From positions 1 through 31,026 of IMG/VR virus record IMGVR_UViG_2667527789_000013: 31,026 nt of DNA; one strand, written 5' to 3'. This document shows positions 8,417 through 31,026 of the stretch, one piece after another. The stretch is from a virus. Taxonomy: Duplodnaviria > Heunggongvirae > Uroviricota > Caudoviricetes. Both the position numbers and the translations under genes were made by a program. Under the pieces are notes generated by a model. The model did no database searches. It worked only from the letters and a program-made list of their open reading frames with translations, and had not been told where the DNA came from. Each line of letters starts with the position of its first letter. Position 1 is the first letter of the stretch.

Positions 8417-8438
8417 CCCGCAGCGCGGGCTTTTTTGT
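8416..8438 (+). terminator. Rho-independent terminator after the two-gene cassette
   Basis: Stem GCCCGC / GCGGGC followed by TTTTTT, immediately after stop codon 8414-8416. Confidence 0.6.
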
Positions 8439-8470
8439 GTCTGCGGATTCCCGCCCAGGTGGCGGTGGCA

Positions 8471-8500
8471 TTCGTTAAAAACAAGGCCGCGAAAGCGGCC
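8471..8500 (-). terminator. Rho-independent terminator ending the ejection-protein operon (after the secreted-protein gene)
   Basis: Stem GGCCGC / GCGGCC with GAAA loop; on the minus strand followed by TTGTTTTTAA; 8 nt downstream of the minus-strand stop at 8508. Confidence 0.5.
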
Positions 8501-8507
8501 TGTTTGA

Positions 8508-9359: not shown

Positions 9360-9360
9360 C

Positions 9361-16539: not shown

Positions 16540-19010
16540 CAGAATCCCCCAACAGTAAGGCGAGGAATAACGGCAAGAACAGACAGCGGCAACGGGTCAA
16601 GCTGACGGATTTTTACACGTCCGTTTTTGCCCCAGTTACTGTCCAGTTTCACTTCTACTTTTCCGGTAGCATCATCAACAGGATCATCGTAGAACTCGAA
16701 TTCACGCTGTGGATATTCGTACCATTTACCGCCTGGCGTAGTCGCCCAGATGCCGCGACTGGCATTCACAACCAGAGTAACGGACGGGATCACCTGTTTT
16801 TTGTCCAGCAGCGTTTCCTGTCCGTTAATGTTGATATCCAGTGTTTCGAATTCAGCAGTTATTGGCAGGCCGATGTGCACAACAGCCCCCGGTGATTCCA
16901 GCGTGACGGCACCTCCGGAAACTACTTTCTGTGGTTCCACGTTCGCATCAGAGAGGATGTTTACGGTCTGACCTTCAAGATGAGACAAGCCGCCAAATGT
17001 CCGGCGCGCCATCTGCCAGTTCGTGGTGGCCACATTCCTGAGGGATGGCGGGACGTTCCTGTTAGCACGAACCACTACAGCGGTATTGCTGGTTACAGAA
17101 ATAATGTCGCAACGTAATTCTTTTGACACTTCATCGCCAATATCAGGATCAGTTCCGGTATAAGGGAACTGTAGTTGCGCGCCGACATCACTACTGGTGA
17201 AGTACGCACCACCAGAAACACTGATTGTATATTCCGCGCGGTAATCCCATTCACCAGAACCACCAGTGATGATCATCGTTCTGTCAGACGTATTTCTTCC
17301 ATCATAGCTAAGGCCAGAATCAACAAAGAAAGCATCTTCATCGCTGGTAAATAAACGGCTGGACAGTCTCTCTATGTATCTCACTGTTTGCCCGTTAACG
17401 GTTCGGTTAACGACGAAATACACCGCATCTTCATTGCCTTCGCTGATACTGCATGTGCTTTCATATTTTCCGGTACTGGATTGTGGTGCCCATGCAAAAA
17501 CCTGCTGATCACGCAAATAGGTCATCACCAGTAATTTACCGTCATCACGAATGCAGAAGGCGCTGGAGTAAGGGACAATAGAGAAGCACCAGTCAACAAT
17601 GCTGTGCTTCTGAAAAAGATGATTGGCAAGGATAGTAAGGTCGTTCCCCTGATATCCGTCAACATCGAATGAGTAGGCCAGATCACGTACAACACTGCCT
17701 TTCTCCTGGACGAACAGAGCAATATTCGCCACGGCAATTGGTGGGACATTGCTCGAGCCATTTGATCCCTGAGAGCTGAATGCAAATGATGATGGGGTTA
17801 ATACTTTGTTCTGGTCGCCGGTGATGACGTACTCACCTCCGGAAGTCAGCGCCACCAGCGAACCAACATCAATCAGGTGGCGGATCTCATTAACCTGACG
17901 CCCGGCATAGGTGTAGATAATTCTGTCGTCATCCTGCGTAGGATTGCTTTTGCCAAAATCCTTATAATCCCCGGTACGGCTGGCCCAGATAGTCTGAGGG
18001 AACGCAGTCGATGCGGCGAAGTAAAGACGTTGTTGATAATAAACAACAGTGCCAGGATAACCGTTAACACTGTTCCAGGCATATTTAGCCCATTTATAGC
18101 TGGCATTATCCTCGCCAACTACCTGCGAAGGGATATAGGAAATCACCTGGGCAGTTGCAGTAGTGCCATTTGCAACAGTGATACGGGCAATGCCAAAACC
18201 ACTGTGCAGATATTCCCACTCAATGCCAGTATAATCATCTCCGGATCCGCCCCAGCCATCCCATGATGTGCCTTCTGTATGCGAAGGGCGCAAAGTACCT
18301 GTTTTGCCTGCTGTAACGGCGCGATAGTAGTTACTGTCTGCACGGCGAATATCGCCAATCGACGTACTCTTACTGGTTTCCCATACCGGCACTGAATCCA
18401 CTGCAGGCTGTTCCAGATAGAACAATTTGCCTACCTGCTCCGCGCCAAAAATAGAGGCGCTTGCCGTTAACGTAATTGTCCCGGTGCTGGCGCTGGCATA
18501 AACCGTCACTAACTCGTCAATATTGATATCTTCAAATGGCCCGTTCTTCGTTACCACATCAACCAGTTGCCAGTTGTCATGCGCATAGCGGCGCAACTCT
18601 TTCGGCGGGTATGCCGGGTGAACCAGCGTAAGCACGTCTGCGCTTTGCGTGAATTTAATTCGGAACAGATCGGCTTCAGTATATGGCGTGGCAATTTCAT
18701 AAATAACATTGCTGCTGTTCAGCACCAACGCACCATCTTTGATAACGCGCATGTACTGGTGCCCGAACTCCAGAGCATAGGTCTGAACCGTCGAGAACTG
18801 GAACGGGATCAGGCGGCATTTCCGATTTGGGTATTTGGCGGCACCGACAAAACGCGTACCAGGTCGATTCTCAACGCCGCCATACTGCCGCACGATAAAG
18901 TTATCGCACTTGCGCAATGCCACCTGGTACTTCGCCATGTCGATACGCCCGTACAACGACGGTCCAATCTCACCACCAGCAAAGCTTGGCTGGATCCAAC
19001 TGATAGCCAT
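16539..19010 (-). CDS. Tail tubular protein B / nozzle (T7 gp12-like), 823 aa
   Basis: Size (T7 gp12 about 794 aa) and position after the gp11-like gene; beta-rich, Gly/Thr/Ser-rich composition typical of tail-tube proteins. Confidence 0.6.
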   Translation of the reverse strand: MAISWIQPSFAGGEIGPSLYGRIDMAKYQVALRKCDNFIVRQYGGVENRPGTRFVGAAKYPNRKCRLIPFQFSTVQTYALEFGHQYMRVIKDGALVLNSSNVIYEIATPYTEADLFRIKFTQSADVLTLVHPAYPPKELRRYAHDNWQLVDVVTKNGPFEDINIDELVTVYASASTGTITLTASASIFGAEQVGKLFYLEQPAVDSVPVWETSKSTSIGDIRRADSNYYRAVTAGKTGTLRPSHTEGTSWDGWGGSGDDYTGIEWEYLHSGFGIARITVANGTTATAQVISYIPSQVVGEDNASYKWAKYAWNSVNGYPGTVVYYQQRLYFAASTAFPQTIWASRTGDYKDFGKSNPTQDDDRIIYTYAGRQVNEIRHLIDVGSLVALTSGGEYVITGDQNKVLTPSSFAFSSQGSNGSSNVPPIAVANIALFVQEKGSVVRDLAYSFDVDGYQGNDLTILANHLFQKHSIVDWCFSIVPYSSAFCIRDDGKLLVMTYLRDQQVFAWAPQSSTGKYESTCSISEGNEDAVYFVVNRTVNGQTVRYIERLSSRLFTSDEDAFFVDSGLSYDGRNTSDRTMIITGGSGEWDYRAEYTISVSGGAYFTSSDVGAQLQFPYTGTDPDIGDEVSKELRCDIISVTSNTAVVVRANRNVPPSLRNVATTNWQMARRTFGGLSHLEGQTVNILSDANVEPQKVVSGGAVTLESPGAVVHIGLPITAEFETLDININGQETLLDKKQVIPSVTLVVNASRGIWATTPGGKWYEYPQREFEFYDDPVDDATGKVEVKLDSNWGKNGRVKIRQLDPLPLSVLAVIPRLTVGGF

Positions 19011-19618: not shown

Positions 19619-19938
19619 TCCCCCCCGTTACCGTAGATGGTTTCAGCTGCTGATTTTTCTACATCACCGGAAACAGGAGCGATTGCCATATCAGTGATCT
19701 GCAGATCAGCGCTGCGATTAACACCATCGTCAGTTTCTCTGGCAGACAGGCCTCGAATAACAGCCTTTGCAGTTATCATCACTTCTGTTCCGACGCCCTG
19801 AGGTTGCGCCTTCAGCTTATTCAATATGTCGTTATTCAGCGTGATGCACAGCCCCCACGGGTATTCATCGCGAGTTCTGGTTTCTCCGCTCTCATCCTGG
19901 TAGCTGTCAGTGCCGGTTTTGAGGTTTACGAGTTCCAT
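19615..19938 (-). CDS. Hypothetical virion/assembly protein (107 aa)
   Basis: ATG 19938 (MELVNLK...) with GGAG SD (track start 19944 is GTG); first gene after the terminator that follows the capsid cluster. Confidence 0.45.
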   Translation of the reverse strand: MELVNLKTGTDSYQDESGETRTRDEYPWGLCITLNNDILNKLKAQPQGVGTEVMITAKAVIRGLSARETDDGVNRSADLQITDMAIAPVSGDVEKSAAETIYGNGGE

Positions 19939-19950
19939 ATACACTCCTGC

Positions 19951-19970
19951 AATAAAGGGGCCGAAGCCCC
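19951..19970 (-). terminator. Strong rho-independent terminator/attenuator after the capsid gene cluster
   Basis: On the minus strand: GGGGC-UUCG-GCCCC (GC stem with UUCG tetraloop) followed by TTTATT; downstream genes are still needed, so read-through is expected. Confidence 0.55.
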
Positions 19971-19988
19971 TTGTCTGATCCGCGAGGC

Positions 19989-20333
19989 TTACACGCCCAG
20001 TTCTTTACGCTTATCTGCGATCTTCTCGCGGAGCGTTTCGGCTTTGGCGTTATGGTGTGGCTTCTCGTTAAAGAGCAATTCGTACTCTTCACGGAGCTTA
20101 TCCAGTTCACCATCATCTGACACATCGTTGATGATTTTGGTGCTGGTTGCTGCCATTGACACCTTTCCTGCAACTTTTGCTTTTGCCTGTCTGGCTGCAT
20201 CGTTAACAGGTTCCAGTGCGCTACCAGGCTCACCTTCGTATTCGATTTCTGCCCCCTCCGGCCACAGAGTGTTATGGATATGAGAGAGGCGCAGAACGCG
20301 GTATCTTGGTTTCTCACCTGACATCGATATCAC
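19989..20333 (-). CDS. Hypothetical head-associated protein (114 aa)
   Basis: Compact ORF in the capsid cluster; charged, helical C-terminus; function unknown. Confidence 0.45.
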   Translation of the reverse strand: MISMSGEKPRYRVLRLSHIHNTLWPEGAEIEYEGEPGSALEPVNDAARQAKAKVAGKVSMAATSTKIINDVSDDGELDKLREEYELLFNEKPHHNAKAETLREKIADKRKELGV

Positions 20334-20334
20334 C

Positions 20335-20772
20335 TTAACCAGTTACTTTTGAGCGGATCGGATACGGCGTATTGGCATCAACATCAAGACTGATACCCGC
20401 AGTGAATTCGCCAGCCGTTAGTGGGCCAGTTGCGACGGAATAGTTAACACGCAGATATCGCTGAACACCGGCAGGCACCTTTGCAGAAACAACTCGTTTA
20501 CCTGCTGTCAGGGCGGTCTTTGCCAGTGCGCCACTATCATAAATAGTGGTCCATGAGCTGTTATTCTCACTCGTCTGCAACTGGATGTTTACAGTTGCAT
20601 CACCGCTTGCCGCGGCGGCTGTGTTAACCAGCGCCCAAAACTCAAGCGGGTAACCCACGCCGATATCACGACGTTTTCCGTCAATTGGACCGAGATCGAT
20701 TACGTCAGTAGAAGCCGCGGTATTCGTAACCGCCTGAGCTTCGGAGAACATCAACAGTTTGTCGGTGATCAT
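20335..20772 (-). CDS. Putative capsid decoration/cement protein (145 aa)
   Basis: Immediately downstream of the major capsid gene; beta-rich Thr/Ala/Val composition; position typical of decoration proteins. Confidence 0.45.
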   Translation of the reverse strand: MITDKLLMFSEAQAVTNTAASTDVIDLGPIDGKRRDIGVGYPLEFWALVNTAAAASGDATVNIQLQTSENNSSWTTIYDSGALAKTALTAGKRVVSAKVPAGVQRYLRVNYSVATGPLTAGEFTAGISLDVDANTPYPIRSKVTG

Positions 20773-20823
20773 CTTCTTTCTCCATTAGTGGGTCTGTTAC
20801 GACCCACAGGTTAATAACAGGCG

Positions 20824-21816
20824 TTACACCACGCGGGCTTCTGTTTCCAGAAGCGCATCAGTTTCACGGATTGGTACACCACGGAATGAAGTCCACCACT
20901 CGCCTTCTGTCTCTTTTACGCTGATCGCCAGAGATGTTTTCTCCAGAGATTGCAGATCGAGAGCCTGACCTACAGTGCGGTTCATATAGAACACCGGGCG
21001 CCCAATGCCACGGTTTGGAATGCGATGTAGTGCTTTAACCATCAACTTCGCAATATTTGCGGCAGAGGAAGGTTCTGAAAGATTGCTGACATCAATGTTC
21101 GCAACGCGAACAACATAACGCCAGTCACGCAGAGTAAGTCCATTGTCCCATTTGTAATGAGTACGGTAGCCTTCGTACTTGCCGCCACTAGCATCTTCCA
21201 GTGTCACCTGGCCTTTATCTTCCATCTGGATGCCAGCCTTCTGCCCTTTCGGGAAGATGCCATGCACAGTGTTTTCCCCCCACACTATTAACCAGATTGA
21301 GGTGTTGTCTGTACCCGTGCCACCAGCATCAATAATGTTCTGAGCATTACCCGCAGACAGACTGGAATAGCGGGAAGACAGCCCCATAAACTGCTGAGGG
21401 TTAACGCTGGAATCACCGTAAAACAGCGTCTGCGCCATCGCCTGATTCATCGCTTCAATAAATGCTCGGTCTTCAGACAGGCGGAATTCAGCGGTATTAC
21501 CGTTCAGATCAGCCAGTGACTTATCGACTTCAGCATAGGTTTCCAGCATGCCAACGGTATCGGTGATCTGCACAGTGGTTGATTTGCTCGGTTGTACGCC
21601 ATAGTTCAGCAAACGCCAGGTAGCTGAAGGTAAACCAGAACGAATGGTGGTTCGATGTCCGGTAGGAAGGTTCCCTTCGACAAAAGGCATATCCTGAAGG
21701 ATCGGGTTAGTTTGACCGAGAAGCTCGATAATCTTATCGACTTTCCCGTTTGGATCGACGCGCTTACCCCAGTCAGCCAGCGTTAGCGCAGTTAAGCCTT
21801 TAACAGCCATTGTCAT
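20824..21816 (-). CDS. Major capsid protein
   Basis: 330 aa, follows the scaffold gene; size and composition consistent with an HK97-fold coat protein of podoviruses. Confidence 0.75.
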   Translation of the reverse strand: MTMAVKGLTALTLADWGKRVDPNGKVDKIIELLGQTNPILQDMPFVEGNLPTGHRTTIRSGLPSATWRLLNYGVQPSKSTTVQITDTVGMLETYAEVDKSLADLNGNTAEFRLSEDRAFIEAMNQAMAQTLFYGDSSVNPQQFMGLSSRYSSLSAGNAQNIIDAGGTGTDNTSIWLIVWGENTVHGIFPKGQKAGIQMEDKGQVTLEDASGGKYEGYRTHYKWDNGLTLRDWRYVVRVANIDVSNLSEPSSAANIAKLMVKALHRIPNRGIGRPVFYMNRTVGQALDLQSLEKTSLAISVKETEGEWWTSFRGVPIRETDALLETEARVV

Positions 21817-21824
21817 TTCCTCTC

Positions 21825-22520
21825 TTATTTGCCATAGAGCACTTCGGCCGCACTACGCTGGCCTTCATTACCACCGGTGACCATGCCATCTTCAGACATC
21901 GCCTTTCCGATTTTCACGAACGTTTTGACCAGATCAGGGTGATTACCCAGCCCGGTGGTGTTCAGATATTCTTTGAGTTCAGGTGTCCCGAACTGGTCAA
22001 GCGCACGCTGTGCGGCGCTAAGGTTAGAAATCAACTTGTCGCCACCGATTTCTTTGTCAGCTTTTACATCCGCAGCCCACTGCTCGGTTGTTTTCTGCCA
22101 GGCTTCTGCCTGGCGCTGCTGAACACCTGCCAGAATCTTCGGATAAGCATCAACCAGCTTTTGCGCTTGCTCGTTGGTCAGGTTAAGTTCTCGCGCCACC
22201 GGCTCGAATTCCTTCAACGCTTCTGTATCCAGCTCTACGCCTTCGGCAGCCTGAAACTCGTACTTCTCCGGCGCACCCTCTGGTTTATCGCCGTCCTTTT
22301 TTTCATCCTGCTTATCGTTTTCAGGCTTTTTGTCATCAGCAGGTTTATCGCCATCAGCAACAGGTTGTGGCTTATCACCTTCCTGTTGTGATGGATCACC
22401 AACTGGAGCAGGGTTATCACCTGCAGGCGCTGACGGTTCTGACGCAGCCGGAGCTGCTCCACCATCGACTGGCTGCTCATTGCAAAGACGGTAGTTAATT
22501 AAAGAATCAAATAAACTCAC
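21825..22520 (-). CDS. Scaffolding protein
   Basis: 231 aa, highly acidic, Pro/Asp/Lys-rich N-terminal low-complexity region and helical C-terminus; between portal and capsid as in T7 gene 9. Confidence 0.6.
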   Translation of the reverse strand: MSLFDSLINYRLCNEQPVDGGAAPAASEPSAPAGDNPAPVGDPSQQEGDKPQPVADGDKPADDKKPENDKQDEKKDGDKPEGAPEKYEFQAAEGVELDTEALKEFEPVARELNLTNEQAQKLVDAYPKILAGVQQRQAEAWQKTTEQWAADVKADKEIGGDKLISNLSAAQRALDQFGTPELKEYLNTTGLGNHPDLVKTFVKIGKAMSEDGMVTGGNEGQRSAAEVLYGK

Positions 22521-22531
22521 GATCTTTCCCC

Positions 22532-22801
22532 TTAAGCCATAATCCCGGCTGCCTTTAACTTGGCCAGCAGAGAATTAAAATCAGCGACGACTCCACTAAC
22601 ATCACTCGCGACAGAATTAGCTTGTGTTGCAGCTTTCTTGACGCCACCTATAACTGATTCAGTTGCCGCAGGCGGCGTAAATGTTTCAGGCTTTTCCTGA
22701 ATATCACTCCAGGAAACAGGAGCATCATCACCAATGACATTTACTTCAGCGATGGTGCTGTCTCCATCAAGCCTGATCGGTCTAATTTTATTTAAAGACA
22801 T
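22532..22801 (-). CDS. Hypothetical small protein (89 aa)
   Basis: ATG 22801 (MSLNKIRP...) preceded by AGAGG SD; track ORF 22532..22819 begins at a GTG further upstream. Confidence 0.45.
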   Translation of the reverse strand: MSLNKIRPIRLDGDSTIAEVNVIGDDAPVSWSDIQEKPETFTPPAATESVIGGVKKAATQANSVASDVSGVVADFNSLLAKLKAAGIMA

Positions 22802-22805
22802 TTGC

Positions 22806-23102
22806 CTACCTCTGTTCACTGGCCTCTTTGGCCATCTTCAAATACTGTTCAGGGCAATGCGCCATAACGCGCTGAAACAGTTCCAGCGCCAGATTGCGTT
22901 GCCCCTCATTAAATGCCATTGCCATAGCGTCCATCGGTGAGATAGCGGAAAACACCCGGCCTTTCTCCAGCACCGACCAGACAACGCGACGCCCCTGTTC
23001 ACTGCTCATGACAAAGCGAATGTCATCAATTTCACGCTGTGCCATGTCACGTTGCTTACGGGCGTTTTCTTCTTTCAGTTGATCGTCTTCGTAATCTGTC
23101 AT
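22806..23102 (-). CDS. Hypothetical small protein (98 aa) downstream of portal
   Basis: ATGA-type overlap with the portal stop; charged helical protein of unknown function. Confidence 0.5.
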   Translation of the reverse strand: MTDYEDDQLKEENARKQRDMAQREIDDIRFVMSSEQGRRVVWSVLEKGRVFSAISPMDAMAMAFNEGQRNLALELFQRVMAHCPEQYLKMAKEASEQR

Positions 23103-24778
23103 TGTGATTTCCCACCCTGACCACTAACTGCATTCGCCATAGCTGACAAAACACTCGGATCCGAAGTTTTAGCTTCGCTTAGCGTCTTGGCACCCTGTGC
23201 CGCCGCCATCCCCATCGCCATCATTTGTTGCTGCTGTTGTTGCTGTGCCCGTTGCTGGCGAGCCTGCTCAACCTGTTCCTGCGGAACAATGACGGTTGGA
23301 GACACTCCGGACATATCAGCGAATGCATCGATCGCCTGATCAACGTTGAGTTTGTCGAGAGCTTCTGGTTTCGCTTGTGCAAGTTGACCAATGAAGTTGA
23401 CCGTGGATGCCAGACTGGACAGGCCGATAGACTTCTGCGCCTGAGCCATGACGGAAATGTATTCGACCTTCAGGGGCATACCTTCCATCGCGTCAGGCGG
23501 TGGCGGCAGCATGTTTTTACGCACCATCATCGAGAAAGCGCGGTCAATGAGAGGATTAAGACATTCGTCGTTCAGACGCTCAAGTACCGGCCCCAACATC
23601 AGAAGTTTTTCTTCTTTCATTTCGATCACCGCTTCAACAGGCATCGAGCGGGTATTGATGTTCTGCAACATCATGAACAGATCGACAAAGTAGGCGCTGT
23701 TAATGATTTGACGAGTGTCCTGAATGTCTGCCACCAAATCTGCTGTACTGGGGTTAACCAGATAAGCAGGCCTGAAGCCATCCTGACCAGTAATCTGATC
23801 GATATACGTGATGTCGCCAGGAAGAAGGGAGGCGCGCTGATTCTTGAGGGAAGTCGGAGCAACCATCGGCGGATTGGTGGCTTTATCAATCAACTGCGAC
23901 TTGCGCTTCTGGAGAAGCTGCAATGCCTTAACAGGTCCAAGCGCCAGCATACCCGGGCATGATGATCCATAAACATCTTCGCCGTTAACTTCCCAGCGCG
24001 GAGCCATAATTGGAAACTCATCAAATCCGGACTCACGCAACAACTTGTCGTTATCGCCACCAACCTCGTAATAAACCGATTTGAATGGCTTGTTCTTGCT
24101 ATCCAGCTTCGATGTATCGCGGTCAATGTTCGGGTAAACCGAATGCATCACTTCAATCCACTTCTCGTAGGTGCCGCTTTCCCACATGCTTTTTACGGAT
24201 TCGCTGACGTTATTTAGCCCGAACTCCTGAACAAGCTGACGAACAGTCATAGAGAACTTGCGAAAACAGGTGTCCACACTGCCACGAGGTGAGTTAGCCA
24301 GGTAGTAACTGCCTATCGGGAATGGCATTGTGCGAATGATGTCCTCGTCATCCTCCAGTACTGCCATTGCACCAGTGCTGTATGTGCCGAGGCTTCCGTA
24401 TAACTGCGGCAGCGACTGATAGAGATTCGACTTATTGAACATATCGTTCATGCGGTTCTGCACCGCCTCAAGCCACAACTTAACAGGACCATAATCCATC
24501 ATTTCAGGATCAGGCGTAGCCAGGCGAAACCACGGACGCGCGGGGCTTGTGATGCCAGACATCATGCCGCTGGCGAGAGTGCGCGCCGCCATAGTCCCGG
24601 TCGAATCAATAATGCGTGTATTGCGTCGATCGTTACTGTTGACCTCAGAAGTAAGAAAGCGGGAACCACGCGGGTTGATGTAATCACTCAACTCGCGCCA
24701 GTGCGGCTCGAACGACTGACGCTCGCTTTCAAGTTGTGCGAACTGTTTGTTCAATCGCTCTTTAGTTGTTTCCGCCAT
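23099..24778 (-). CDS. Portal (head-to-tail connector) protein
   Basis: 559 aa; position after terminase, size and Gln/Ala-rich C-terminal tail (QARQQRAQQQQQQQMMAMGMAAAQG) typical of T7-type portal proteins; GGAG SD. Confidence 0.75.
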   Translation of the reverse strand: MAETTKERLNKQFAQLESERQSFEPHWRELSDYINPRGSRFLTSEVNSNDRRNTRIIDSTGTMAARTLASGMMSGITSPARPWFRLATPDPEMMDYGPVKLWLEAVQNRMNDMFNKSNLYQSLPQLYGSLGTYSTGAMAVLEDDEDIIRTMPFPIGSYYLANSPRGSVDTCFRKFSMTVRQLVQEFGLNNVSESVKSMWESGTYEKWIEVMHSVYPNIDRDTSKLDSKNKPFKSVYYEVGGDNDKLLRESGFDEFPIMAPRWEVNGEDVYGSSCPGMLALGPVKALQLLQKRKSQLIDKATNPPMVAPTSLKNQRASLLPGDITYIDQITGQDGFRPAYLVNPSTADLVADIQDTRQIINSAYFVDLFMMLQNINTRSMPVEAVIEMKEEKLLMLGPVLERLNDECLNPLIDRAFSMMVRKNMLPPPPDAMEGMPLKVEYISVMAQAQKSIGLSSLASTVNFIGQLAQAKPEALDKLNVDQAIDAFADMSGVSPTVIVPQEQVEQARQQRAQQQQQQQMMAMGMAAAQGAKTLSEAKTSDPSVLSAMANAVSGQGGKSQ

Positions 24779-24792
24779 TTCAATGACTCCGG

Positions 24793-24999
24793 TTACTGAC
24801 CAAGCAGCGTTTTACCGCTGGTATTAGCGGTTGATGTGTCGCCCTGAGAACCGGTAAGCAGCGTAGAACTACGACCAGCAGCAGCGCGACGGCGACGTGT
24901 TTCTTCGTCGCGGGCATCAACAACGGCAGCATCCTGCTCCTGTGGTGCTGCCTGAACTTCTGGTGTTGCAGGCACTGATGGTGAGCTACCCATGCACAT
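24793..24999 (-). CDS. Small ORF (68 aa) immediately upstream of portal, uncertain
   Basis: ATG 24999 preceded by CGGAGTCATTGA, the same 12-nt translation-initiation context that precedes the portal ATG; low-complexity Ala/Arg/Thr-rich product. Confidence 0.3.
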   Translation of the reverse strand: MCMGSSPSVPATPEVQAAPQEQDAAVVDARDEETRRRRAAAGRSSTLLTGSQGDTSTANTSGKTLLGQ

Positions 25000-25067
25000 A
25001 TCAATGACTCCGTACGCAATTAAATTATTACCAATTTAACCACATATGATTTATTTATCGTAGATAG

Positions 25068-25096
25068 TTGACATTTAACGCACGAATTATTACCTT
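25068..25096 (+). promoter_or_regulatory. Sigma70-like promoter TTGACA-N17-TACCTT for the plus-strand tRNA/Gp49-like unit
   Basis: Perfect -35 TTGACA (25068-25073), 17-nt spacer, weak -10 TACCTT (25091-25096) lying inside operator site D. Confidence 0.35.
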
Positions 25097-25105
25097 TTAG
25101 GTAAG
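25089..25105. promoter_or_regulatory. Operator-like palindrome ATTACC-TTTTA-GGTAAG (site D)
   Basis: Same half-site motif as sites A-C, E, F; overlaps the -10-like element of the putative promoter. Confidence 0.4.
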
Positions 25106-25426
25106 CAAATGGTTCATTCCAGTTATTAACCTGACTGGCTTGTCGTTAAATTGAACAGGTGGAGTGAGCTTTTATTTTGAGCAGTACGGCGTATGGCACA
25201 TGCGCCGATAGCGGTCTGGATACGTTTAAGGGGCACCCTCCCTTGCTCGGGCAAACGAACCAGGTAGCCGGAATGTGCAAGTCGAGCGGTTTTATTCCGC
25301 GCACGGGGATTCACCATCCCGGCGATTCGGTGTGACGCCTCGGAAGAGACGAGGGTACAACGATGAGAGCATTTATGGAGCCGCGACAAAGTGTGGCGCC
25401 TTAACAGGCTAAGTGCTCTCAGCGTT

Positions 25427-25503
25427 GTGGCATTAGCTCAGCTGGACAGAGCAACCGCCTTCTAAGCGGTTGGTCGCAGGTTCGAATCCTGCATGCCACG
25501 CCA
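25427..25503 (+). tRNA. tRNA-Arg (anticodon TCT; reads AGA)
   Basis: 77 nt cloverleaf by hand: acceptor GTGGCAT/ATGCCAC, D-arm GCTC-AGCTGGACA-GAGC, anticodon stem ACCGC/GCGGT with loop CTTCTAA, variable TGGTC, T-arm GCAGG-TTCGAAT-CCTGC, discriminator G, encoded CCA. Differs from E. coli argU as I recall it in the acceptor and anticodon stems. Confidence 0.85.
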
Positions 25504-25546
25504 GAATCACGCCTAAGAACCGTGATGCCAGAAGTTCCAGTGGCTT

Positions 25547-25589
25547 GGCGGTGATGGTTTCCCTTGAAGGACTATCACCGCCCTTTTTA
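25547..25589 (+). terminator. Hairpin plus T-run downstream of the tRNA
   Basis: Stem GGCGGTGAT / ATCACCGCC (9 bp, 18-nt loop) followed by CTTTTTA. Confidence 0.4.
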
Positions 25590-25666
25590 CAGCAGGACGC
25601 CATTGCGATGACTTCATGCTGTAAACCCGTACAGCCACGGAAGGCATAACTCATTGCTTCCAGTTC

Positions 25667-25690
25667 GCCCGGTTCGCCGGGCATTTTTTT
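25667..25690 (+). terminator. Intrinsic terminator/attenuator immediately upstream of the Gp49-like SD
   Basis: Stem GCCCGG / CCGGGC with TTCG loop followed by seven T; the T-run ends 1 nt before the AAGGTGA SD of the ATG at 25702. Confidence 0.45.
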
Positions 25691-25701
25691 AAGGTGAGAT
25701 T

Positions 25702-26073
25702 ATGAACGACCAGCAAATCGAAAAAGAAATCGTTGAGAAAGGCAAAACGGCACCGCGCGTTACGCCAGACCATATCGAAGGCATTATTGCTCAGGAGGCA
25801 TATTTCACAGCAGAAGATGGTGCCTTTGGCAAAGCCATAAAAGCGAAACATACTGGCGGAGAGGTAAACTACCAGCCGCACGAATCACTTTCTCTGCTGA
25901 CGTTCTGCGTCCTGGTGCTGCGCAACGGCTTCACCGTCACCGGAGAGAGCGCCTGTGCAAGCCCGGAAAACTTTGATGCAGAAATTGGTCGGAAGATTGC
26001 CCGGCAGAATGCTGTAAACAAAATCTGGATGCTCGAAGGTTACTTGCTGAAGCAGAAGCTAAGCGAGCAATAA
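25702..26073 (+). CDS. Gp49-like phage protein (N4 gp49 / Sf6 gp66 family), cargo gene
   Basis: 123 aa; motifs TAPRVT, NGFTVTGESACASPENFDAEIGRKIARQNAVNKIWMLEGYLL match my recollection of this widespread prophage family; plus strand, opposite to the structural operon. Confidence 0.55.
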   Translation: MNDQQIEKEIVEKGKTAPRVTPDHIEGIIAQEAYFTAEDGAFGKAIKAKHTGGEVNYQPHESLSLLTFCVLVLRNGFTVTGESACASPENFDAEIGRKIARQNAVNKIWMLEGYLLKQKLSEQ

Positions 26074-26093
26074 CACCGTGACATGTCACAAAC

Positions 26094-26120
26094 AGCCAGC
26101 CGATGAGCTGGCTTTGTTTT
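26094..26120 (+). terminator. Rho-independent terminator after the Gp49-like gene
   Basis: Stem AGCCAGC / GCTGGCT with 6-nt loop followed by TTTGTTTT. Confidence 0.55.
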
Positions 26121-26163
26121 ATCCTCATCAGAGGATATCAACGACATTATCCCCACCAGCGGA

Positions 26164-27639
26164 TTAAGCATACGGGTCATAATCTGTGATGGCCTTGCCT
26201 TGCTGGTTCTGCTGCCCAGGAATTCGCAGACGCTTCGACACAGGGAACGCAAACGTCAGCAGTAGCGCATCGCCTTTACCCGGCGAACGCCCAAGACGCT
26301 CTTTGATATCTTCCTTCGGTTCGATAACGATTTTACCGTCCACACGAACTTTGTACTCTGCCGCCGACAGGTCGTCTGCTGTTTCCTGGTCATCCAGTAT
26401 GCCGCCCAGCCTCAGCCATGTCTTGCATGAATTGAACATCTCCCCACGCTTGTTGAGCATCTGCGGGTCAGTAGACGCGCCACCGAACGGAACAAGTTGC
26501 CATGTACGACCCCATCCGTCACCGATTGACTTCAGACCGGTTCCGTAACCGAAGTCGATGAACACCGCGTCAGCCTGGTACTGGTCTTCAAAGTCAGCGA
26601 TACGCTTCGCCATAATCAGATCGTCTGTGGTCTTGTTACCAGTCCATAGCACCTTACTGTGCAGCCCCTGCCGCAGGTATATCACCGCGTCATCAACGCC
26701 TGAGTATGCCGGGTCAACGCCGATTATCACCGGAGCATGTGCAACCTGCGCAGCGGTTACCACCCGTTTCATTGCCTCATCAGTAAGACCGGTAGGGATA
26801 AACTGCAATTCAGATGCATCAGGGAATATGCCGCGCACACGGATTTTAACGAAGTCGCTGTCTTCCCCGTAGTCATCAACCCATTTCTGCAACTGCTGTT
26901 TGTTAGTGCCTTCCACCGTCCGGCTGTCAATCTGCGCACACTTCCAGCGGTGTTTGTACTTGCGGAAACATTCACGGAAACGCCCGGTGTTACGCGTCGG
27001 GTTCCCGAACGCCACCCAGATGATTTCGGTGTCTTCGTCCGTCAGCGCACCCTCTGCTACCTCCCACACCAGATCGGCAATGTTCGACGCTTCATCGAAT
27101 ACCACGATGATGCGTTTGCGCTCGTTGTGTAGTCCGGCGAATGCCTCAGTGTTGTGCTCAGACCAGGGGATTGCGTCAGCTCGCCACCGCTTGTCGTGCC
27201 CAGGATCATTGCTGTACATCGCGGTAGCGGTACAGGTAAACCAGTCTTTCGTGATAGCAAGGTTCGACCACTTGATAATTTCCGGCCAGGTCTTCGTTCG
27301 TAGCTGGTTGTCGGTGTTGGCGGTCACCACGACCTTACAATCCTCGCAAGTGGACATGCCCCAGTTGATCAGCATTGAGATGAATGCGGATTTACCAATA
27401 CCGTGACCAGAAGCGCGTGCCAGCATAAGCGGCTGATAGCGCGTCTCTGGATTCTGCAGGTGATCACGTATCTCTCGGAACGCATCAGCCTGCCACTGAC
27501 GTGGACCGGTGGCATGTGCCAGTTCAGTCCCCTCTTCCCCCCACGGGAACGCATAGAGGGCATAACCAAGCGGATCGTGAGTGAACCCTGCAATATCCTC
27601 GATTAACTGCTCTTCAGGAGATAACGCTGTATCTGTCAC
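26164..27639 (-). CDS. Terminase large subunit
   Basis: 491 aa; Walker A-like ASGHGIGKS near the N-terminus, acidic nuclease-type C-terminal half; directly follows the small-subunit gene with ATGA overlap. Confidence 0.8.
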   Translation of the reverse strand: MTDTALSPEEQLIEDIAGFTHDPLGYALYAFPWGEEGTELAHATGPRQWQADAFREIRDHLQNPETRYQPLMLARASGHGIGKSAFISMLINWGMSTCEDCKVVVTANTDNQLRTKTWPEIIKWSNLAITKDWFTCTATAMYSNDPGHDKRWRADAIPWSEHNTEAFAGLHNERKRIIVVFDEASNIADLVWEVAEGALTDEDTEIIWVAFGNPTRNTGRFRECFRKYKHRWKCAQIDSRTVEGTNKQQLQKWVDDYGEDSDFVKIRVRGIFPDASELQFIPTGLTDEAMKRVVTAAQVAHAPVIIGVDPAYSGVDDAVIYLRQGLHSKVLWTGNKTTDDLIMAKRIADFEDQYQADAVFIDFGYGTGLKSIGDGWGRTWQLVPFGGASTDPQMLNKRGEMFNSCKTWLRLGGILDDQETADDLSAAEYKVRVDGKIVIEPKEDIKERLGRSPGKGDALLLTFAFPVSKRLRIPGQQNQQGKAITDYDPYA

Positions 27640-28232
27640 TGATTACCATCCTGACGTTCTTTGAGTCGCTTCCTGGCTGCTGCTATGCGATCAGCAATTG
27701 TCACATTCACATTAACATCCAGATGTTCTTTGAACGCGTTGACATCAACATGCTTACCAATCAGCTCAAGGTTCTTCACCTTGTCAGGCCATTTAATTTT
27801 TTTGAGGATTGTCTCTATCGAATCCTCGTTCATGTTCATGATGGTCGATGACAGATCAAAGCCACTAAGCGTAGTGCGCCAGATTTTCGGCCACTCACGG
27901 ATTGGTTTAAGGCTCCCATCGTCGTTGAGGATGTCGATCACGTCCATCTGATCGATCTCCACCAGGCGCATGAGAACGTAATCAACACTGACGCGCATTC
28001 GTTTGTTGCGCTCCTCCATCAACTCGGCAATCCGTTTTTGAATACGTTCATCGCGCATCATTACACTGGCTTTAACTGCCGCTGTATTTGGGGAGAATCC
28101 TGCGTTAATCGCTGCCTGAGTCTGGTTTTCAGGCGTTTGGATGTATGACTGGCAATAAGCCTCCTGCATTGCTGTTAGTGGCTTAAATTGCGTTGATTTG
28201 CGTTTATAGGTTTTAGGTTCAGCAGGCATCAT
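27636..28232 (-). CDS. Terminase small subunit
   Basis: About 198 aa from ATG 28232 (MMPAEPKTYKRK...) with GGTGG SD; track ORF 27636..28310 starts at TTG and runs through an upstream terminator hairpin; basic N-terminal region and position upstream of TerL. Confidence 0.55.
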   Translation of the reverse strand: MMPAEPKTYKRKSTQFKPLTAMQEAYCQSYIQTPENQTQAAINAGFSPNTAAVKASVMMRDERIQKRIAELMEERNKRMRVSVDYVLMRLVEIDQMDVIDILNDDGSLKPIREWPKIWRTTLSGFDLSSTIMNMNEDSIETILKKIKWPDKVKNLELIGKHVDVNAFKEHLDVNVNVTIADRIAAARKRLKERQDGNQ

Positions 28233-28249
28233 AACCACCGTGGTAATTG

Positions 28250-28265
28250 TTACCGTTTTGGTAAT
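28250..28265. promoter_or_regulatory. Operator-like palindrome (G)TTACC-GTTTT-GGTAAT (site E) with an extra GGTAAT half-site at 28242-28247
   Basis: On the minus strand reads TACTAT-TACC-AAAAC-GGTAAC-A-ATTACC just before the TerS SD; the same TACTATTACC-N5-GGTAA arrangement occurs at site F. Confidence 0.4.
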
Positions 28266-28274
28266 AGTACCATG

Positions 28275-28301
28275 CAAAATAAAGCCGCCATAGTTGGCGG
28301 C
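28275..28301 (-). terminator. Rho-independent terminator upstream of the terminase genes
   Basis: Stem GCCGCC / GGCGGC with 6-nt loop; on the minus strand followed by TTTATTTTG; lies between the 28307 gene stop and the TerS start. Confidence 0.5.
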
Positions 28302-28306
28302 AGTAT

Positions 28307-28519
28307 TCAAAGTCCATCAAATTCATCGTAAAAACTCTCGTCAAGATACCCTTCCCATTTACCGCGAATAAAAATTACATCCTCACCGCAAGGGTGCTGA
28401 CTGTCGATAACTATATCCCTCCTGTCGCAACCATACTTATTCATAAGAAATTTAACCTCTTTCTGAAAATTTGCTGAGTTATCTCTCATATCTTCAAGGT
28501 CGTAGCGTATTTTTGGCAT
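28307..28519 (-). CDS. Hypothetical small protein (70 aa)
   Basis: ATG 28519 (MPKIRYDLEDMRDNS...) with AAGGTG SD; track ORF 28307..28540 starts at GTG. Confidence 0.45.
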   Translation of the reverse strand: MPKIRYDLEDMRDNSANFQKEVKFLMNKYGCDRRDIVIDSQHPCGEDVIFIRGKWEGYLDESFYDEFDGL

Positions 28520-28536
28520 AACACCTTCGTGACATG

Positions 28537-28875
28537 TCACACTATTAATTTCGTTTCATGCCAGCCTTTAGTCACCCAGCATTGCGAGTCACCATTACAC
28601 GGGCATGAATTAACTGGAACTCTCTCGCCGCACTTACCGCAACGTTTTCTGCTGATCGATTTTATACGCCCGCGCACGCGTGCATCATCCTGGCGGATCA
28701 GTAACGCTATATACTCACCAAATTCGTAAGGCGCACGCCCGGGGCGACGCGTGGCACAGTTACGCTCCAGCATTTCAATTTCCTGAGCATCAAGCACAAT
28801 CTCCAGCTTACGCACACCAGATGCAGCTTGTCTGGCTCTCTGAGCGGCTTTGCGCTCTGCTGCTGATTTAGCCAT
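28537..28875 (-). CDS. Hypothetical protein with basic N-terminus and C-terminal Cys cluster (zinc-ribbon-like)
   Basis: ATG 28875 (MAKSAAERKAAQRARQ...); C-terminal RCGKCGERVPVNSCPCNGDSQCW; track ORF starts one codon upstream at TTG. Confidence 0.5.
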   Translation of the reverse strand: MAKSAAERKAAQRARQAASGVRKLEIVLDAQEIEMLERNCATRRPGRAPYEFGEYIALLIRQDDARVRGRIKSISRKRCGKCGERVPVNSCPCNGDSQCWVTKGWHETKLIV

Positions 28876-29149
28876 CAATATTTACCTTTATCGCGTACAC
28901 CTTTACCGGTTTATCGCCGAAGTGGGGATGTGTGATTGTTTTCACTTCATATCCTCCATACGGAACATCAATTCTGCGGCTGGAGTCGTCGCGCTTCGGA
29001 TATCCCTTTGTGATAATCAGGCGGTCATACTTACGGTTAACGAGGCGCTTATTCCAGTAGTCATTACACAGGCGATACTCTTCCGTTTTCTCCCCGCGAA
29101 TCATGGCATCGAAGTATTCACCTTTAACGGCAAGTTGCAGGTTAGCCAT
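28868..29149 (-). CDS. ASCH-domain-like protein
   Basis: MANLQLAVKGEYFDAMIRGEKTEEYR fits the ASCH/PUA-like N-terminal pattern (K.eyFdai..GeKt.E.R); ATG 29149 has strong GGAGGTGA SD and TAATG overlap with the upstream stop (alternative ATG at 29170). Confidence 0.5.
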   Translation of the reverse strand: MANLQLAVKGEYFDAMIRGEKTEEYRLCNDYWNKRLVNRKYDRLIITKGYPKRDDSSRRIDVPYGGYEVKTITHPHFGDKPVKVYAIKVNIDG

Positions 29150-29409
29150 TACCTCACCTCCAGTCTCCATACCGCCTGACCAATCCAGCTGGCATGGGTA
29201 TCTTTGGATACTGTTCCGTCTTTAGCCAGCTCCATAAGAATTTTGCGCAAATCTGCCGAACGCCATTCTTCATCAGGAAATTCCTTCTCCATTGCCAACC
29301 GCAGATTCCAGGTTGCCATCCTGAATGGATATTCCCCGCCGAGAGCTTTATCTTGCAGGGCAGCCCGGGAACGCATCACCTGCAAAACCTTCTCTTTTAC
29401 ATCCATCAT
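29149..29409 (-). CDS. Hypothetical protein (86 aa)
   Basis: ATG 29409 (MMDVKEK...) with AGGAGG SD and ATGA overlap with the upstream stop; track ORF 29149..29553 begins at TTG and would overlap the upstream gene by about 150 nt. Confidence 0.45.
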   Translation of the reverse strand: MMDVKEKVLQVMRSRAALQDKALGGEYPFRMATWNLRLAMEKEFPDEEWRSADLRKILMELAKDGTVSKDTHASWIGQAVWRLEVR

Positions 29410-30020
29410 TTCGCCTCCTGCGGCGGTTCTGGTAGCGGCATCCAGAACAAGGCGTTCCCTAACCACGATAAAGTGCCGTCGCTCAACTCCACGTATTCCC
29501 CTTGTACCTGTCCTGCCATATACTCGCCATGCTTTGAATAAATTAAAATCCAATCATCTTGAGGGGGCATTCGCTCACTACAGCTTATCCAACCATCCGG
29601 AGTTACCGGAGAGTTGCCATCCAGCGCGTTCAACTTGTAAGCCTGGCTTACAGGTTCGGCACTATGAAGCATGGCTGCGCGGCAGGCGTTCCAGCCTGTA
29701 GCGTATGCAGCCGCTTTGCTGCTGCCTTCAACTGGCGCATCCTGCCAATACATTTCTTCCGGCACAACCGGCGCAGGTGAGTCAGCATAAACAGGAATAA
29801 CGTCCGGTTGCTCTTTATTGCTTTCATCCGTTAAAGCCCAGAATAATTTCCCGGCCGGATGTTTGAAAATATAAGCAACTGGTTCTGCTTCCAGCGATGC
29901 CAGAGCAATTCGTGCCAGTTCTTCCGCTTCTTCTGCTGGCAGTACAACGTTGCTACCCGGTCCGTATGTTTCGCGCCACTGCTTGATTGTCAGCAGTCGC
30001 TCTTTGGTAATAGTGGTCAT
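29406..30020 (-). CDS. DUF551-like phage protein
   Basis: 204 aa; C-terminus ...ALFWMPLPEPPQEAK matches the characteristic WMPLPEPP ending of DUF551 proteins; ATGA overlap with the upstream gene. Confidence 0.5.
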   Translation of the reverse strand: MTTITKERLLTIKQWRETYGPGSNVVLPAEEAEELARIALASLEAEPVAYIFKHPAGKLFWALTDESNKEQPDVIPVYADSPAPVVPEEMYWQDAPVEGSSKAAAYATGWNACRAAMLHSAEPVSQAYKLNALDGNSPVTPDGWISCSERMPPQDDWILIYSKHGEYMAGQVQGEYVELSDGTLSWLGNALFWMPLPEPPQEAK

Positions 30021-30532
30021 GCCGCGTTTCCTTCTTTCTTATTAACAATTACACCGTCATATATTTCATTAAGGTGCCCTCTCAACTCCATGCGCCTTAA
30101 TGCAGATAACATGTAATCGCATTCAACCTGCTTATTCCCAATAAAAGGTTTATCTTCAGGGTTACCCCAACAGCAATTCCCCTTGGGCCAACCATGTACT
30201 TTCCGTACTCTTCCGTTAACAACGTGAAGTAATCCCCAGCCAGGTGGTAAATCCTCAATTGAAATAATTCCCGGCTCACTAATAAAGAATCGCCAGTCGC
30301 CCATTCCAAGAGACGGATTTTTACGAAAACGCTTTTTTCTATCTGCCAACAAGTCAGCACGAGAACACTTCGCCTCTATCAGGCATGATGCTGAATTTCT
30401 GAATCCCATAGCATCTGGCTGTTCTCCGGTACTGGTTACAGCTATAAAGCGGTCATGAAAACAAACCTTGAACCCGTTGCGCTTAAGGAACTTGTACGCA
30501 ATCTGACAGAGTTCGCGGTGTGTTAACGCCAT
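30017..30532 (-). CDS. Hypothetical protein with PD-(D/E)xK-like motif (possible nuclease)
   Basis: ATG 30532 (MALTHRELCQ...) with AAGGAG SD (track start 30583 is GTG); segment PDAMGF...CLIEAKCSRADL resembles a D...E.K nuclease core; unverified. Confidence 0.45.
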   Translation of the reverse strand: MALTHRELCQIAYKFLKRNGFKVCFHDRFIAVTSTGEQPDAMGFRNSASCLIEAKCSRADLLADRKKRFRKNPSLGMGDWRFFISEPGIISIEDLPPGWGLLHVVNGRVRKVHGWPKGNCCWGNPEDKPFIGNKQVECDYMLSALRRMELRGHLNEIYDGVIVNKKEGNAA

Positions 30533-30718
30533 ATCACTCTCCTTTAGTGCGCAAGTGGTTTTTCCTGCGGTTTTGCGCTGCACTGGGCTTTTTGCAACAA
30601 CTGTGACCCATCACCCCTAAAAACCCCGTCAACCTCAACCGTCTGTTACTAATCCTCACCCATCGCCAGACCCCAACACCGTTTCTGCGAGCTAACAGAA
30701 TTTTTGCTTTACGGTTTT

Positions 30719-30895
30719 TCATCGCTTTGCTCTCCTGCGTCTCTTTGCTGCTCGTCGTGCCGCTGCAATACCGGTATGGCGGCGCTTTGGTGCCGGGATG
30801 ATGTTGTCAGCCATCAGGACATGTGGCTTTGCAATTAGCGCAGAAGCCCAAAAACGAGTCGGGTACGGTAACAAGCCGATACATGCCACACGCAT
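30719..30895 (-). CDS. Small basic ORF (58 aa), uncertain
   Basis: ATG 30895 preceded by AAAGGAGGTGAGTA and overlapping the upstream stop as TAATG; product ends in an Arg/Lys-rich tail; below the track size cut-off. Confidence 0.3.
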   Translation of the reverse strand: MRVACIGLLPYPTRFWASALIAKPHVLMADNIIPAPKRRHTGIAAARRAAKRRRRAKR

Positions 30896-31026
30896 TACTC
30901 ACCTCCTTTGATGCGAATGCCAGCAACACGTAGTGCATGTTCTAAGTCAGCCAGATAAAGCCAGCAGCCATTTTCTTTAGGTATCATGACGTGGCGCTCA
31001 TCATCATTTATCGGATGTCCATATCG
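30895..31026 (-). CDS. 3' end of a gene continuing beyond the window (partial, 43 codons visible)
   Basis: Open frame from the window edge ending at TAA 30895-30897 (...HALRVAGIRIKGGE), translationally coupled to the next ORF. Confidence 0.3.
   Translation of the reverse strand, partial: RYGHPINDDERHVMIPKENGCWLYLADLEHALRVAGIRIKGGE

Follow-up and report, generated by a model that had tools for sequence, protein, structure and literature searches.

The window analyzed here, a stretch of 31,026 nt from the IMG/VR virus record IMGVR_UViG_2667527789_000013, is an epsilon15/phiV10-like (Uetakevirus) prophage of Escherichia coli whose genes run head to tail on the minus strand. It shares with described members of this group both sequence identity and the synteny of the terminase, portal, capsid and tailspike genes, and its portal matches those of phiV10, TL-2011b, Tyrion and epsilon15. 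A 99.8% identical prophage in strain STEC1585 is annotated with terminase, portal, capsid and tailspike, and its replication genes are followed by an accessory string, the terminase and the portal. The features considered in this study are listed in Table 1. Most of the small proteins had no match in Pfam; the ASCH-like and 58-aa ORFs match PHROG families with hundreds of relatives.

Table 1 Genes, gene-start contexts and junctions discussed in the text.
Feature	Position	Strand	Remark
Portal gene	23099..24778	-	
CGGAGTCATTGA, one base, then the portal ATG	24791..24780	-	
68-aa gp3-like ORF	24793..24999	-	
CGGAGTCATTGA, one base, then the ATG of the 68-aa gp3-like ORF	25012..25001	-	
ASCH-like gene, 93 aa, phrog_625	28868..29149	-	Downstream partner of J1
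J1, GGAGGTGAGGTAATG	29161..29147	-	Shine-Dalgarno and TAATG overlapping the ASCH-like gene start
86-aa gene, phrog_2814	29149..29409	-	3' end supplies the J1 Shine-Dalgarno site
DUF551 gene, 204 aa	29406..30020	-	C-terminal codons (..PPQEAK*) hold the ribosome-binding site caGGAGGcgaaATGA for the 86-aa gene
171-aa gene, phrog_9263/631	30017..30532	-	Within the cassette replaced in strain STEC1585
62-aa gene, phrog_1380	30534..30722	-	
58-aa gene, phrog_13831	30719..30895	-	Downstream partner of J2
J2, GGAGGTGAGTAATG	30906..30893	-	Shine-Dalgarno and TAATG overlapping the 58-aa gene start
J2 initiation region, ~30 nt, GGCATTCGCATCAAAGGAGGTGAGTA, encoding ..GIRIKGGE*	30896..30927	-	Kept with the 58-aa gene; remainder of the upstream gene variable
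ead/Ea22-like gene (phrog_250), 3' end	30895..31026	-	Upstream partner of J2; continues beyond the window

Strong Shine-Dalgarno sites at two stop/start overlaps

Neighboring genes overlap at 18 of the 31 minus-strand junctions. One-base T[AG]ATG overlaps (TAATG or TGATG) account for eight junctions, four of them TAATG, and overlaps of the ATGA type for seven. An earlier note on this DNA had singled out the gene starts at 29149 and 30895 as being preceded by the same strong Shine-Dalgarno (SD) site and a TAATG, and both arrangements, referred to here as J1 and J2, are indeed present on the minus strand. At J1, the stop codon TAA (29151..29149) of the 86-aa gene overlaps the ATG of the ASCH-like gene at 29149, and the SD site lies inside the last codons of the upstream gene (GAG GTG AGG TAA, E V R stop), whose protein ends in ..WRLEVR*. 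At J2, the TAA (30897..30895) of the Ea22-like gene overlaps the ATG of the 58-aa gene at 30895, and the SD site is again contained in the last upstream codons (GGA GGT GAG TAA, G G E stop), with a protein ending in ..IRIKGGE*.

Anti-SD duplexes were computed for 32 gene starts against GAUCACCUCCUUA, which we take from textbook knowledge to be the 3' tail of the 16S rRNA. The J2 duplex is the strongest of all (−17.5 kcal/mol, 10 contiguous bp) and that of J1 ranks second (−15.2 kcal/mol, 8 bp), with only 0.5% of random 22-mers reaching −14 kcal/mol. The distance from GGAGG to ATG is 7 nt at J1 and 6 nt at J2, so that both combine contiguous pairing to the 16S tail with a spacing within about 5-9 nt.

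Overlapping stop and start codons accompanied by an SD site (UGAUG, UAAUG or AUGA) provide translational coupling in bacterial and phage operons. By analogy with such textbook junctions, the genes on either side of J1 and J2 are probably coupled as well: the next gene would be started at the overlap either by a ribosome that has just terminated on the gene before it or by a free 30S subunit retained through 8-10 bp of pairing with the 16S tail, so that the small accessory genes would be translated as a coupled string. Neither J1 (z = −0.8) nor J2 (z = −1.3) lies in a predicted local RNA fold of significant stability, and thus no significant fold of the kind that would sequester the start in a coupling hairpin was predicted at either junction.

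Junctions J1 and J2 as copies or convergent sites

When aligned, J1 and J2 have 14 identical bases with one 1-nt indel, and both stand at gene starts within a single gene string. This is the ground for the proposal, made in the earlier note, that one junction cassette was duplicated or reused within this prophage. The 9-mer GGAGGTGAG is also over-represented relative to shuffles, occurring three times in the window versus 0.19 expected. Base composition underpredicts this count; selection for anti-SD pairing accounts for the two copies at gene starts, but not for the internal third (17840..17832), which is found inside an 823-aa gene with no start codon nearby and is taken to be a chance occurrence. 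That the internal GGAGGTGAGTA (17830-17840) serves in programmed frameshifting or pausing was considered and rejected, there being no start codon, overlapping ORF or supporting evidence there. In a direct-repeat search of the whole window, neither the J1/J2 pair nor the pair of 12-mers discussed below was among the 20 largest families shown.

The behavior of the two sites in relatives differs. J1 is polymorphic (A/C and T/A), also at positions shared with J2, the variants being GGAGGTG[A/C]GG (a synonymous change in Arg) and GGAGGAGCGG. At least four different junctions occur in front of the ASCH-like gene, according to the gene upstream of it: TAATG after ..LEVR*, aggaggttaaccGTG after ..QEVNRG*, aggaggaaggtcGTG after ..KEEGRG* and gatgagtgATG after ..WDEDDE*. 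Its conservation begins only at +2 (58 distinct sequences). The J1 ribosome-binding site (RBS) thus belongs to the upstream 86-aa gene. At J2, relatives carry TAATG or TAGTG (21/80 loci), and column conservation is at least 0.97 from about −28 among 33 distinct relatives. Homology blocks near J2 end at 30921-30938, and the C-termini of the upstream proteins vary. Here the site is part of an initiation region of ~30 nt that travels with the downstream 58-aa gene.

These observations weigh heavily against duplication. Of the nine core bases shared by the two junctions, eight (GGAGGTGA) are dictated by the 16S rRNA 3' tail, to which they are exactly complementary, and the similarity ends at this functional core, with flanks that are unrelated both upstream (gagact vs atcaaa) and downstream (GCTAAC vs CGTGTG). 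The upstream genes are unrelated, without a homologous C-terminus (..LEVR* vs ..KGGE*), and contain the motifs in different frames, the spacing of the motifs differs by 1 nt, and the site segregates with the upstream gene at J1 and with the downstream gene at J2. Furthermore, a 9-nt run in two of 32 ATG-anchored contexts is not unusual, since 20% of random sets of 32 such sites contain a pair with a shared run of 9 nt or more. In 1.1 Mb of related loci, GGAGGTGA followed by a start codon precedes at least 10 unrelated genes. Because of the SD complement, the different frames and spacing and the different modules to which the sites belong in relatives, we do not consider J1 and J2 to be a reused or duplicated junction, and regard this origin as extremely unlikely. 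The earlier note had itself allowed that the repeats might be no more than the generic SD consensus, and for J1 and J2 only that consensus and a common stop/start overlap are left once the alignment is taken beyond the core.

We conclude that J1 and J2 are very probably two independent strong SD sites at stop/start overlaps in a tightly packed, mosaic-jointed prophage. They are alike because both converge on a perfect complement of the 16S tail at the preferred distance from a stop/start overlap. This conclusion is built on observed sequences, pairing strengths, reading frames, behavior in relatives and joint positions.

The initiation context shared by the portal and its upstream neighbor

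The portal and the small gp3-like ORF upstream of it had also been noted to share a 12-nt initiation context. We found CGGAGTCATTGA at both starts, and exactly twice in the window. An in-register run of at least 12 nt was obtained in 4 of 300 random sets (p ~0.013), and the match is thus nominally more than expected by chance. The portal start also has a local RNA fold with z = −2.1.

Among relatives, the 12-nt match is confined to the E. coli phiV10-type and Tyrion-type lineages, and 14 of the 16 lineages sampled share only (A)CGGAG. The portal of Sodalis phiSG1 contains a stop codon and was left out of the alignment. The small-ORF context, ACGGAG..ATTG.., is recognizable more widely, in epsilon15, SPN9TCW, 65FD and two Citrobacter prophages (ACGGAGCTATTGCT), and one further lineage has GCGGAGTCATTGAA at the small ORF only. 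Both Tyrion copies read CGGAGTCATTGT, with T in place of A at −2, and the two copies of a Tyrion-like contig have TCATTGT; at positions −1 and −14, the portal copy is unlike the small-ORF copy. Our first scan with the small ORF returned only proteins that were 99-100% identical, 78 of 80 being identical to the query, and hence almost no variation. An IMG/VR query with the small protein of Tyrion recovered those E. coli contigs again and nothing further. When the whole collection was scanned for CGGAGTCATTGNNATG, most hits fell in prophages already found, the others being one Tyrion-like contig, the GCGGAGTCATTGAA lineage and scattered matches in unrelated environmental contigs that look like chance.

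Tentatively, the 12-13 nt identity could reflect copying of the small-ORF initiation region onto the portal, by micro gene conversion or a short replacement, in a common ancestor of the phiV10-type and Tyrion-type phages. The improbability of the in-register run within the window, the presence of the small-ORF context in relatives whose portal context does not match it, and the −2 substitution found in both copies would all fit such an event, and the one covarying position is weak evidence consistent with a local copy of the initiation region onto the neighboring gene. However, this is a single position in two lineages, the nearby positions −1 and −14 are not alike in the two copies, most lineages share only the RBS core, and a tract of 12 nt is very short for homologous conversion. 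Chance could also suffice, given the number of patterns that a reader can notice. Overall we consider copying to be a realistic possibility that nonetheless falls short of being the probable origin of the match. Alternatively, an identical sequence at an identical distance from two adjacent starts might be bound by a translational regulator or a small RNA acting on the two genes together. Yet the sequence is not conserved across the genus, a third or reverse-complement copy is absent from the window, and complementarity to the window's isrK and C4 RNAs is unremarkable, making such a site very unlikely. The idea of duplication, given up for J1 and J2, survives in a weak form for this pair, whose similarity extends past the RBS core, is lineage-specific and includes one covarying position.

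Mosaic joints and comparison with known phages

Both J1 and J2 lie at or beside recombination joints of a mosaic accessory region. Homology-block ends pile up at 29148, 30723, 30528, 28527 and 28878, all of which are gene junctions. In the small sample of joints covered, the joint falls at +1 at J1, between the RBS and TAATG in STEC1585, and 26-42 nt upstream at J2. In STEC1585, the 3' end of the Ea22-like gene is kept with GGAGG(G)TGAG and followed by a different downstream gene, the break being exactly between the RBS and TAATG. Conversely, the J2 core follows unrelated upstream genes ending in ..KGGE* at locus L150 and at one other locus. Another junction, CAGGAGGTGAAGT[AG]ATG (..QEVK*), follows the coding sequences of several unrelated proteins and leads into several different genes. 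Thus, for the J2 core and the ..QEVK* junction alike, one short junction is found with different genes on either side in different genomes, and in this wider gene pool the notion of junction reuse holds to a limited degree.

These findings raise the question of whether RBS junctions act as short shared linkers at which recombinases exchange cassettes. Such linkers would be a cause of the mosaicism and not only its result, and are compatible with independent SD sites at J1 and J2. The multiple partners of the J2 core and of the ..QEVK* junction, as well as the concentration of homology-block ends at gene junctions, are in keeping with this, and RecET-promoted recombination at 5-13 bp, like the idea of short conserved flanking sequences, has been discussed (PMC2327257). 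However, random illegitimate joints followed by selection for intact genes predict the same pile-up at boundaries, the four quite different junctions of the ASCH-like gene are unexpected with a common crossover linker, and most J2 joints lie 26-42 nt 5' of the ATG, outside the motif. We therefore view the linker role as unlikely. A broader version, in which cassette exchange in the accessory strings of temperate enterobacterial phages takes place preferentially at strong RBS junctions of 10-30 nt and micro gene conversion homogenizes adjacent initiation regions (gp3 and portal, for example), strikes us as quite improbable; if true, translation signals would double as recombination linkers.

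Our preferred explanation for J1 and J2, strong SD sites at mosaic gene joints with translational coupling as their effect, is already known and amounts to normal phage gene packing. On its own the result is of little import, and its practical message is that short gene-start repeats consisting of an anti-SD complement plus a stop/start overlap are not to be mistaken for duplications. As a useful by-product, mosaic joints of two kinds can be viewed at nucleotide level within a single gene string. In one, a gene borrows the RBS of whichever gene precedes it; in the other, a gene carries its own initiation region of ~30 nt and so rewrites the C-terminus of its upstream neighbor. The two kinds could inform the placement of module boundaries in phage annotation.

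The window resembles known systems at each of these levels. Like the Uetakevirus phages epsilon15, phiV10, TL-2011b and Tyrion, whose portals are 80-99.8% identical to that of the window, it has the order terminase, tRNA-Arg, gp3-like small ORF and portal as well as the repressor palindrome ATTACCnnnnnGGTAAT, and in these phages the accessory gene set upstream of the terminase varies from phage to phage. With coupled SD/stop-start junctions in general, J1 and J2 share the 16S complement, the 6-7 nt spacing, a site within the last part of the preceding gene, and the one-base overlap; there is no substantive difference, J1 and J2 merely having the two longest anti-SD complements of the window (8 and 10 bp). 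The sharing of an RBS junction among different gene partners is likewise known from the mosaic joints of temperate phages. As in lambdoid and related phages, homology blocks end at gene junctions, and the DUF551, ASCH-like, Ea22-like, phrog_2814 and phrog_13831 genes recur in varied combinations in lambdoid, Stx, P1-related and Uetakevirus genomes. Compared with known mosaic joints, those of the window are placed to the nucleotide: J1 has its joint between the RBS and the start codon, J2 ~30 nt before the start.

The prophage and its accessory gene string

The window is an epsilon15/phiV10-type prophage of the genus Uetakevirus, adjoined by the E. coli genes yfgH and yfgI and with its genes on the minus strand. 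Its portal shares 99% identity with those of phiV10-type phages; the figure is 94% for Enterobacter phage Tyrion and 80% for the Salmonella epsilon15 group. Positions 15587-29910 were 99.8% identical to a prophage of E. coli STEC1585, whose annotation lists lysis genes, tailspike, capsid, portal and terminase, with small accessory genes in a string between the replication genes and terminase. The corresponding string in the window (29140-30910) runs, in transcription order, from the 3' end of an ead/Ea22-like gene through a 58-aa gene (phrog_13831), a 62-aa gene, a 171-aa gene, a DUF551 gene and an 86-aa gene (phrog_2814) to an ASCH-like gene (93 aa, phrog_625), followed by a regulator-like gene and then terminase. 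Two blocks are replaced relative to STEC1585, with 99-99.8% identity elsewhere: 6851-15587, with the genes for large virion/injection proteins (1129-aa and 915-aa ORFs and neighbours), and 29910-30898, with the 5' part of DUF551 and the 171-aa, 62-aa and 58-aa genes. The tRNA-Arg gene, between terminase and the gp3/portal genes on the strand opposite to theirs, was found likewise in SPN9TCW and STEC1585.

Coordinates of the junctions, start contexts and other elements in the window
Feature	Position	Strand	Sequence or remark
J1, 86-aa gene to ASCH-like gene	29161..29147	-	GGAGGTGAGGTAATG
J2, Ea22-like gene to 58-aa gene	30906..30893	-	GGAGGTGAGTAATG
Internal match, 823-aa virion gene	17830-17840	-	GGAGGTGAGTA; 11 nt identical to J2
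Portal ATG	24778		follows CGGAGTCATTGA
68-aa ORF ATG	24999		follows CGGAGTCATTGA; ORF just before portal
68-aa gp3-like protein	24793-24999	-	phrog_831
Predicted 15-bp hairpin	25013-25046	-	UAUGUGGUUAAAUUG-GUAA-UAAUUUAAUUGCGUA
tRNA-Arg	25427-25503	+	anticodon TCT
isrK Hfq-binding sRNA and C4 antisense RNA	6627-6703 / 6728-6811 (one each; isrK listed first, C4 second)	+	Rfam, above gathering score
AntA/AntB-type antirepressor ORF	6845-7570	+	
Palindrome ATTACCnnnnnGGTAAT	5363-5379, 6482-6498, 6575-6591, 7641-7657, 25089-25105, 28231-28247, 28249-28265		

Ribosome-binding sites at two overlapping junctions

The two junctions J1 and J2 are present as the earlier note gave them, read on the minus strand, and in both the final A of the TAA stop is the first base of the next ATG. 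That note proposed reuse or duplication of junction sequences within the element. The 9-mer GGAGGTGAG indeed occurs three times in the window against 0.19 expected, one copy lying inside an 823-aa gene without a start codon nearby; the internal match in this virion gene serves as an internal control, as such matches arise without any junction. Among 32 curated gene starts the run common to J1 and J2 is 9 nt, and 20% of random sets, each of 32 ATG-anchored sites, contained a pair with a common run at least this long. Comparison of the flanks found no similarity between J1 and J2 beyond the core of common bases, the upstream genes read the motif in different frames (..WRLEVR* at J1, ..IRIKGGE* at J2), and the spacing from Shine-Dalgarno (SD) sequence to start differs by one base. 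Duplication is thus unsupported for this pair, whose repeat is no more than the SD consensus once aligned past the core, the outcome that the note had itself given as counting against its reading. Nor is the TAATG overlap special in the window, since 18 of 31 junctions overlap; the overlap is a single base in eight of them (TAATG in four, TGATG in four) and four bases in seven.

J1 and J2 are instead independent strong SD sites at overlapping stop/start junctions, and what they have in common is the functional part of the sequence. GGAGGTGA complements the 3' tail of 16S rRNA exactly. Pairing with this tail extends over 10 contiguous bases at J2 (-17.5 kcal/mol) and 8 at J1 (-15.2 kcal/mol), stronger than at any other of the 32 starts. 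Their likeness reflects convergence on this complement at optimal spacing. From established knowledge we infer that they likely serve efficient, coupled translation of the small-gene string; predicted local RNA folds were unremarkable.

In relatives, the two junctions behave in opposite ways. Across 80 IMG/VR loci with the ASCH-like gene, at least four unrelated junctions precede it, set by the upstream gene: ..ctGGAGGTG[A/C]GGTAATG after proteins ending ..LEVR* (the 86-aa gene), ..caGGAGGttaaccGTG after ..QEVNRG*, ..aaGGAGGaaggtcGTG after ..KEEGRG*, and ..gatgagtgATG after ..WDEDDE*. The start codon itself varies (ATG or GTG), and column conservation begins only at +2 (58 distinct sequences). 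GGAGGTG[A/C]GG is kept at the 3' end of the 86-aa gene even with another gene downstream. The ribosome-binding site of J1 thus belongs to the coding sequence of the upstream gene. J1 is also polymorphic at bases common with J2 (AGG/CGG, synonymous Arg), and GGAGGAGCGG was found as well. At 80 IMG/VR loci with the 58-aa gene, conservation climbs sharply about 30 nt before the ATG (33 distinct upstream sequences), and the Ea22-like proteins upstream diverge widely until a constant ..GIRIKGGE* tail; at two loci quite different upstream genes still end ..KGGE*. The 58-aa gene thus brings its own initiation region along in mosaic exchanges. The overlap alternates between TAATG and TAGTG in 21 of the 80 loci. 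In STEC1585 the 3' end of the Ea22-like gene is kept together with GGAGG(G)TGAG (locus L003, 1870-1925, GGAGGGTGAG); it has an additional G in the ribosome-binding site and carries the annotation of a pseudogene fragment. The next gene is a different one with a GTG start, the break falling exactly between ribosome-binding site and TAATG.

Ends of homology blocks between the window and relatives cluster at gene junctions (29148, 30723, 30528, 28527 and 28878), and J1 and J2 both lie at mosaic joints. Recombination joints at gene boundaries have long been known from temperate phages, and the two junctions agree with that pattern. In 1.1 Mb of related loci, GGAGGTGA with a start codon precedes at least 10 unrelated genes, and a recurrent CAGGAGGTGAAGT[AG]ATG junction (..QEVK*) joins several upstream proteins to several downstream genes. 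It is debated whether such joints arise illegitimately and are then filtered by selection, or arise by exchange via short conserved flanking sequences (PMC2327257); the junction sequences common to different gene combinations are compatible with crossovers using them or not.

Start context of the portal and small ORF

The 12-nt start context noted earlier for the portal gene and the small ORF was confirmed: CGGAGTCATTGA has exactly two copies in the window, each one base upstream of an ATG. The match exceeds the ribosome-binding core (GGAG plus the spacer TCATTGA) and is nominally unusual: of 300 random sets, 4 gave a run of 12 nt or longer. Both copies match in two of 16 lineages compared, phiV10-type and Tyrion. 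The contexts have only (A)CGGAG in common in the other 14: phages epsilon15, VB_ST_E15, SPN9TCW, 65FD, Klebsiella ST11-OXA245phi3.2 and Enterobacter BUCT554, and prophages of Superficieibacter, Kluyvera, Pseudocitrobacter, two Citrobacter species, Pseudescherichia, Providencia and Erwinia. Conservation of the small-ORF context reaches further than that of the portal context: it reads ACGGAGCTATTGCT in six of these lineages and GCGGAGTCATTGAA in another, where the portal context is unrelated. At position -2, both Tyrion copies have T for A, and TCATTGT likewise stands in both copies of a Tyrion-like contig. The pattern, with its single covarying position, fits a transfer by copying from the start of the small ORF to that of the portal, which may have been renewed once. 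The window contains no third copy of the 12-mer, and comparison of the start contexts with its isrK and C4 RNAs gave no specific complementarity. Sequence reuse is unsupported for J1 and J2 and survives in a weak form for the 12-mer and for junction sharing across the phage gene pool; the junctions and the 12-mer are features of an already-known kind.

In all relatives examined, ranging from E. coli to Providencia and Sodalis, the 68-aa protein (MCxGS...AAPQEQD...RRRRAA...TSGKTLLGQ) is encoded directly upstream of portal and strongly conserved. The predicted hairpin ends right before its ribosome-binding site, and ttaaattggtaataatttaattgcgtacggag there, though intergenic, hardly varies among E. 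coli, Salmonella, Citrobacter and Tyrion relatives. A late promoter is one candidate role for it, an RNA element acting in processing or regulation another; in the epsilon15 record an RNase III site is annotated further upstream.

Probable operators and a possible antirepressor module

The seven palindrome copies (at most one mismatch) compare with 0.06 expected. The same 17-mer (ATTACCTAAAAGGTAAT) is annotated as a repressor binding site in the epsilon15 GenBank record, and the seven are probably prophage operators, at several intergenic sites with one pair near the start of the terminase small subunit. The isrK and C4 matches lie directly upstream of the antirepressor ORF, an arrangement that resembles, inside a Uetakevirus prophage, the antisense-controlled antirepressor module of P1/P7 immI.
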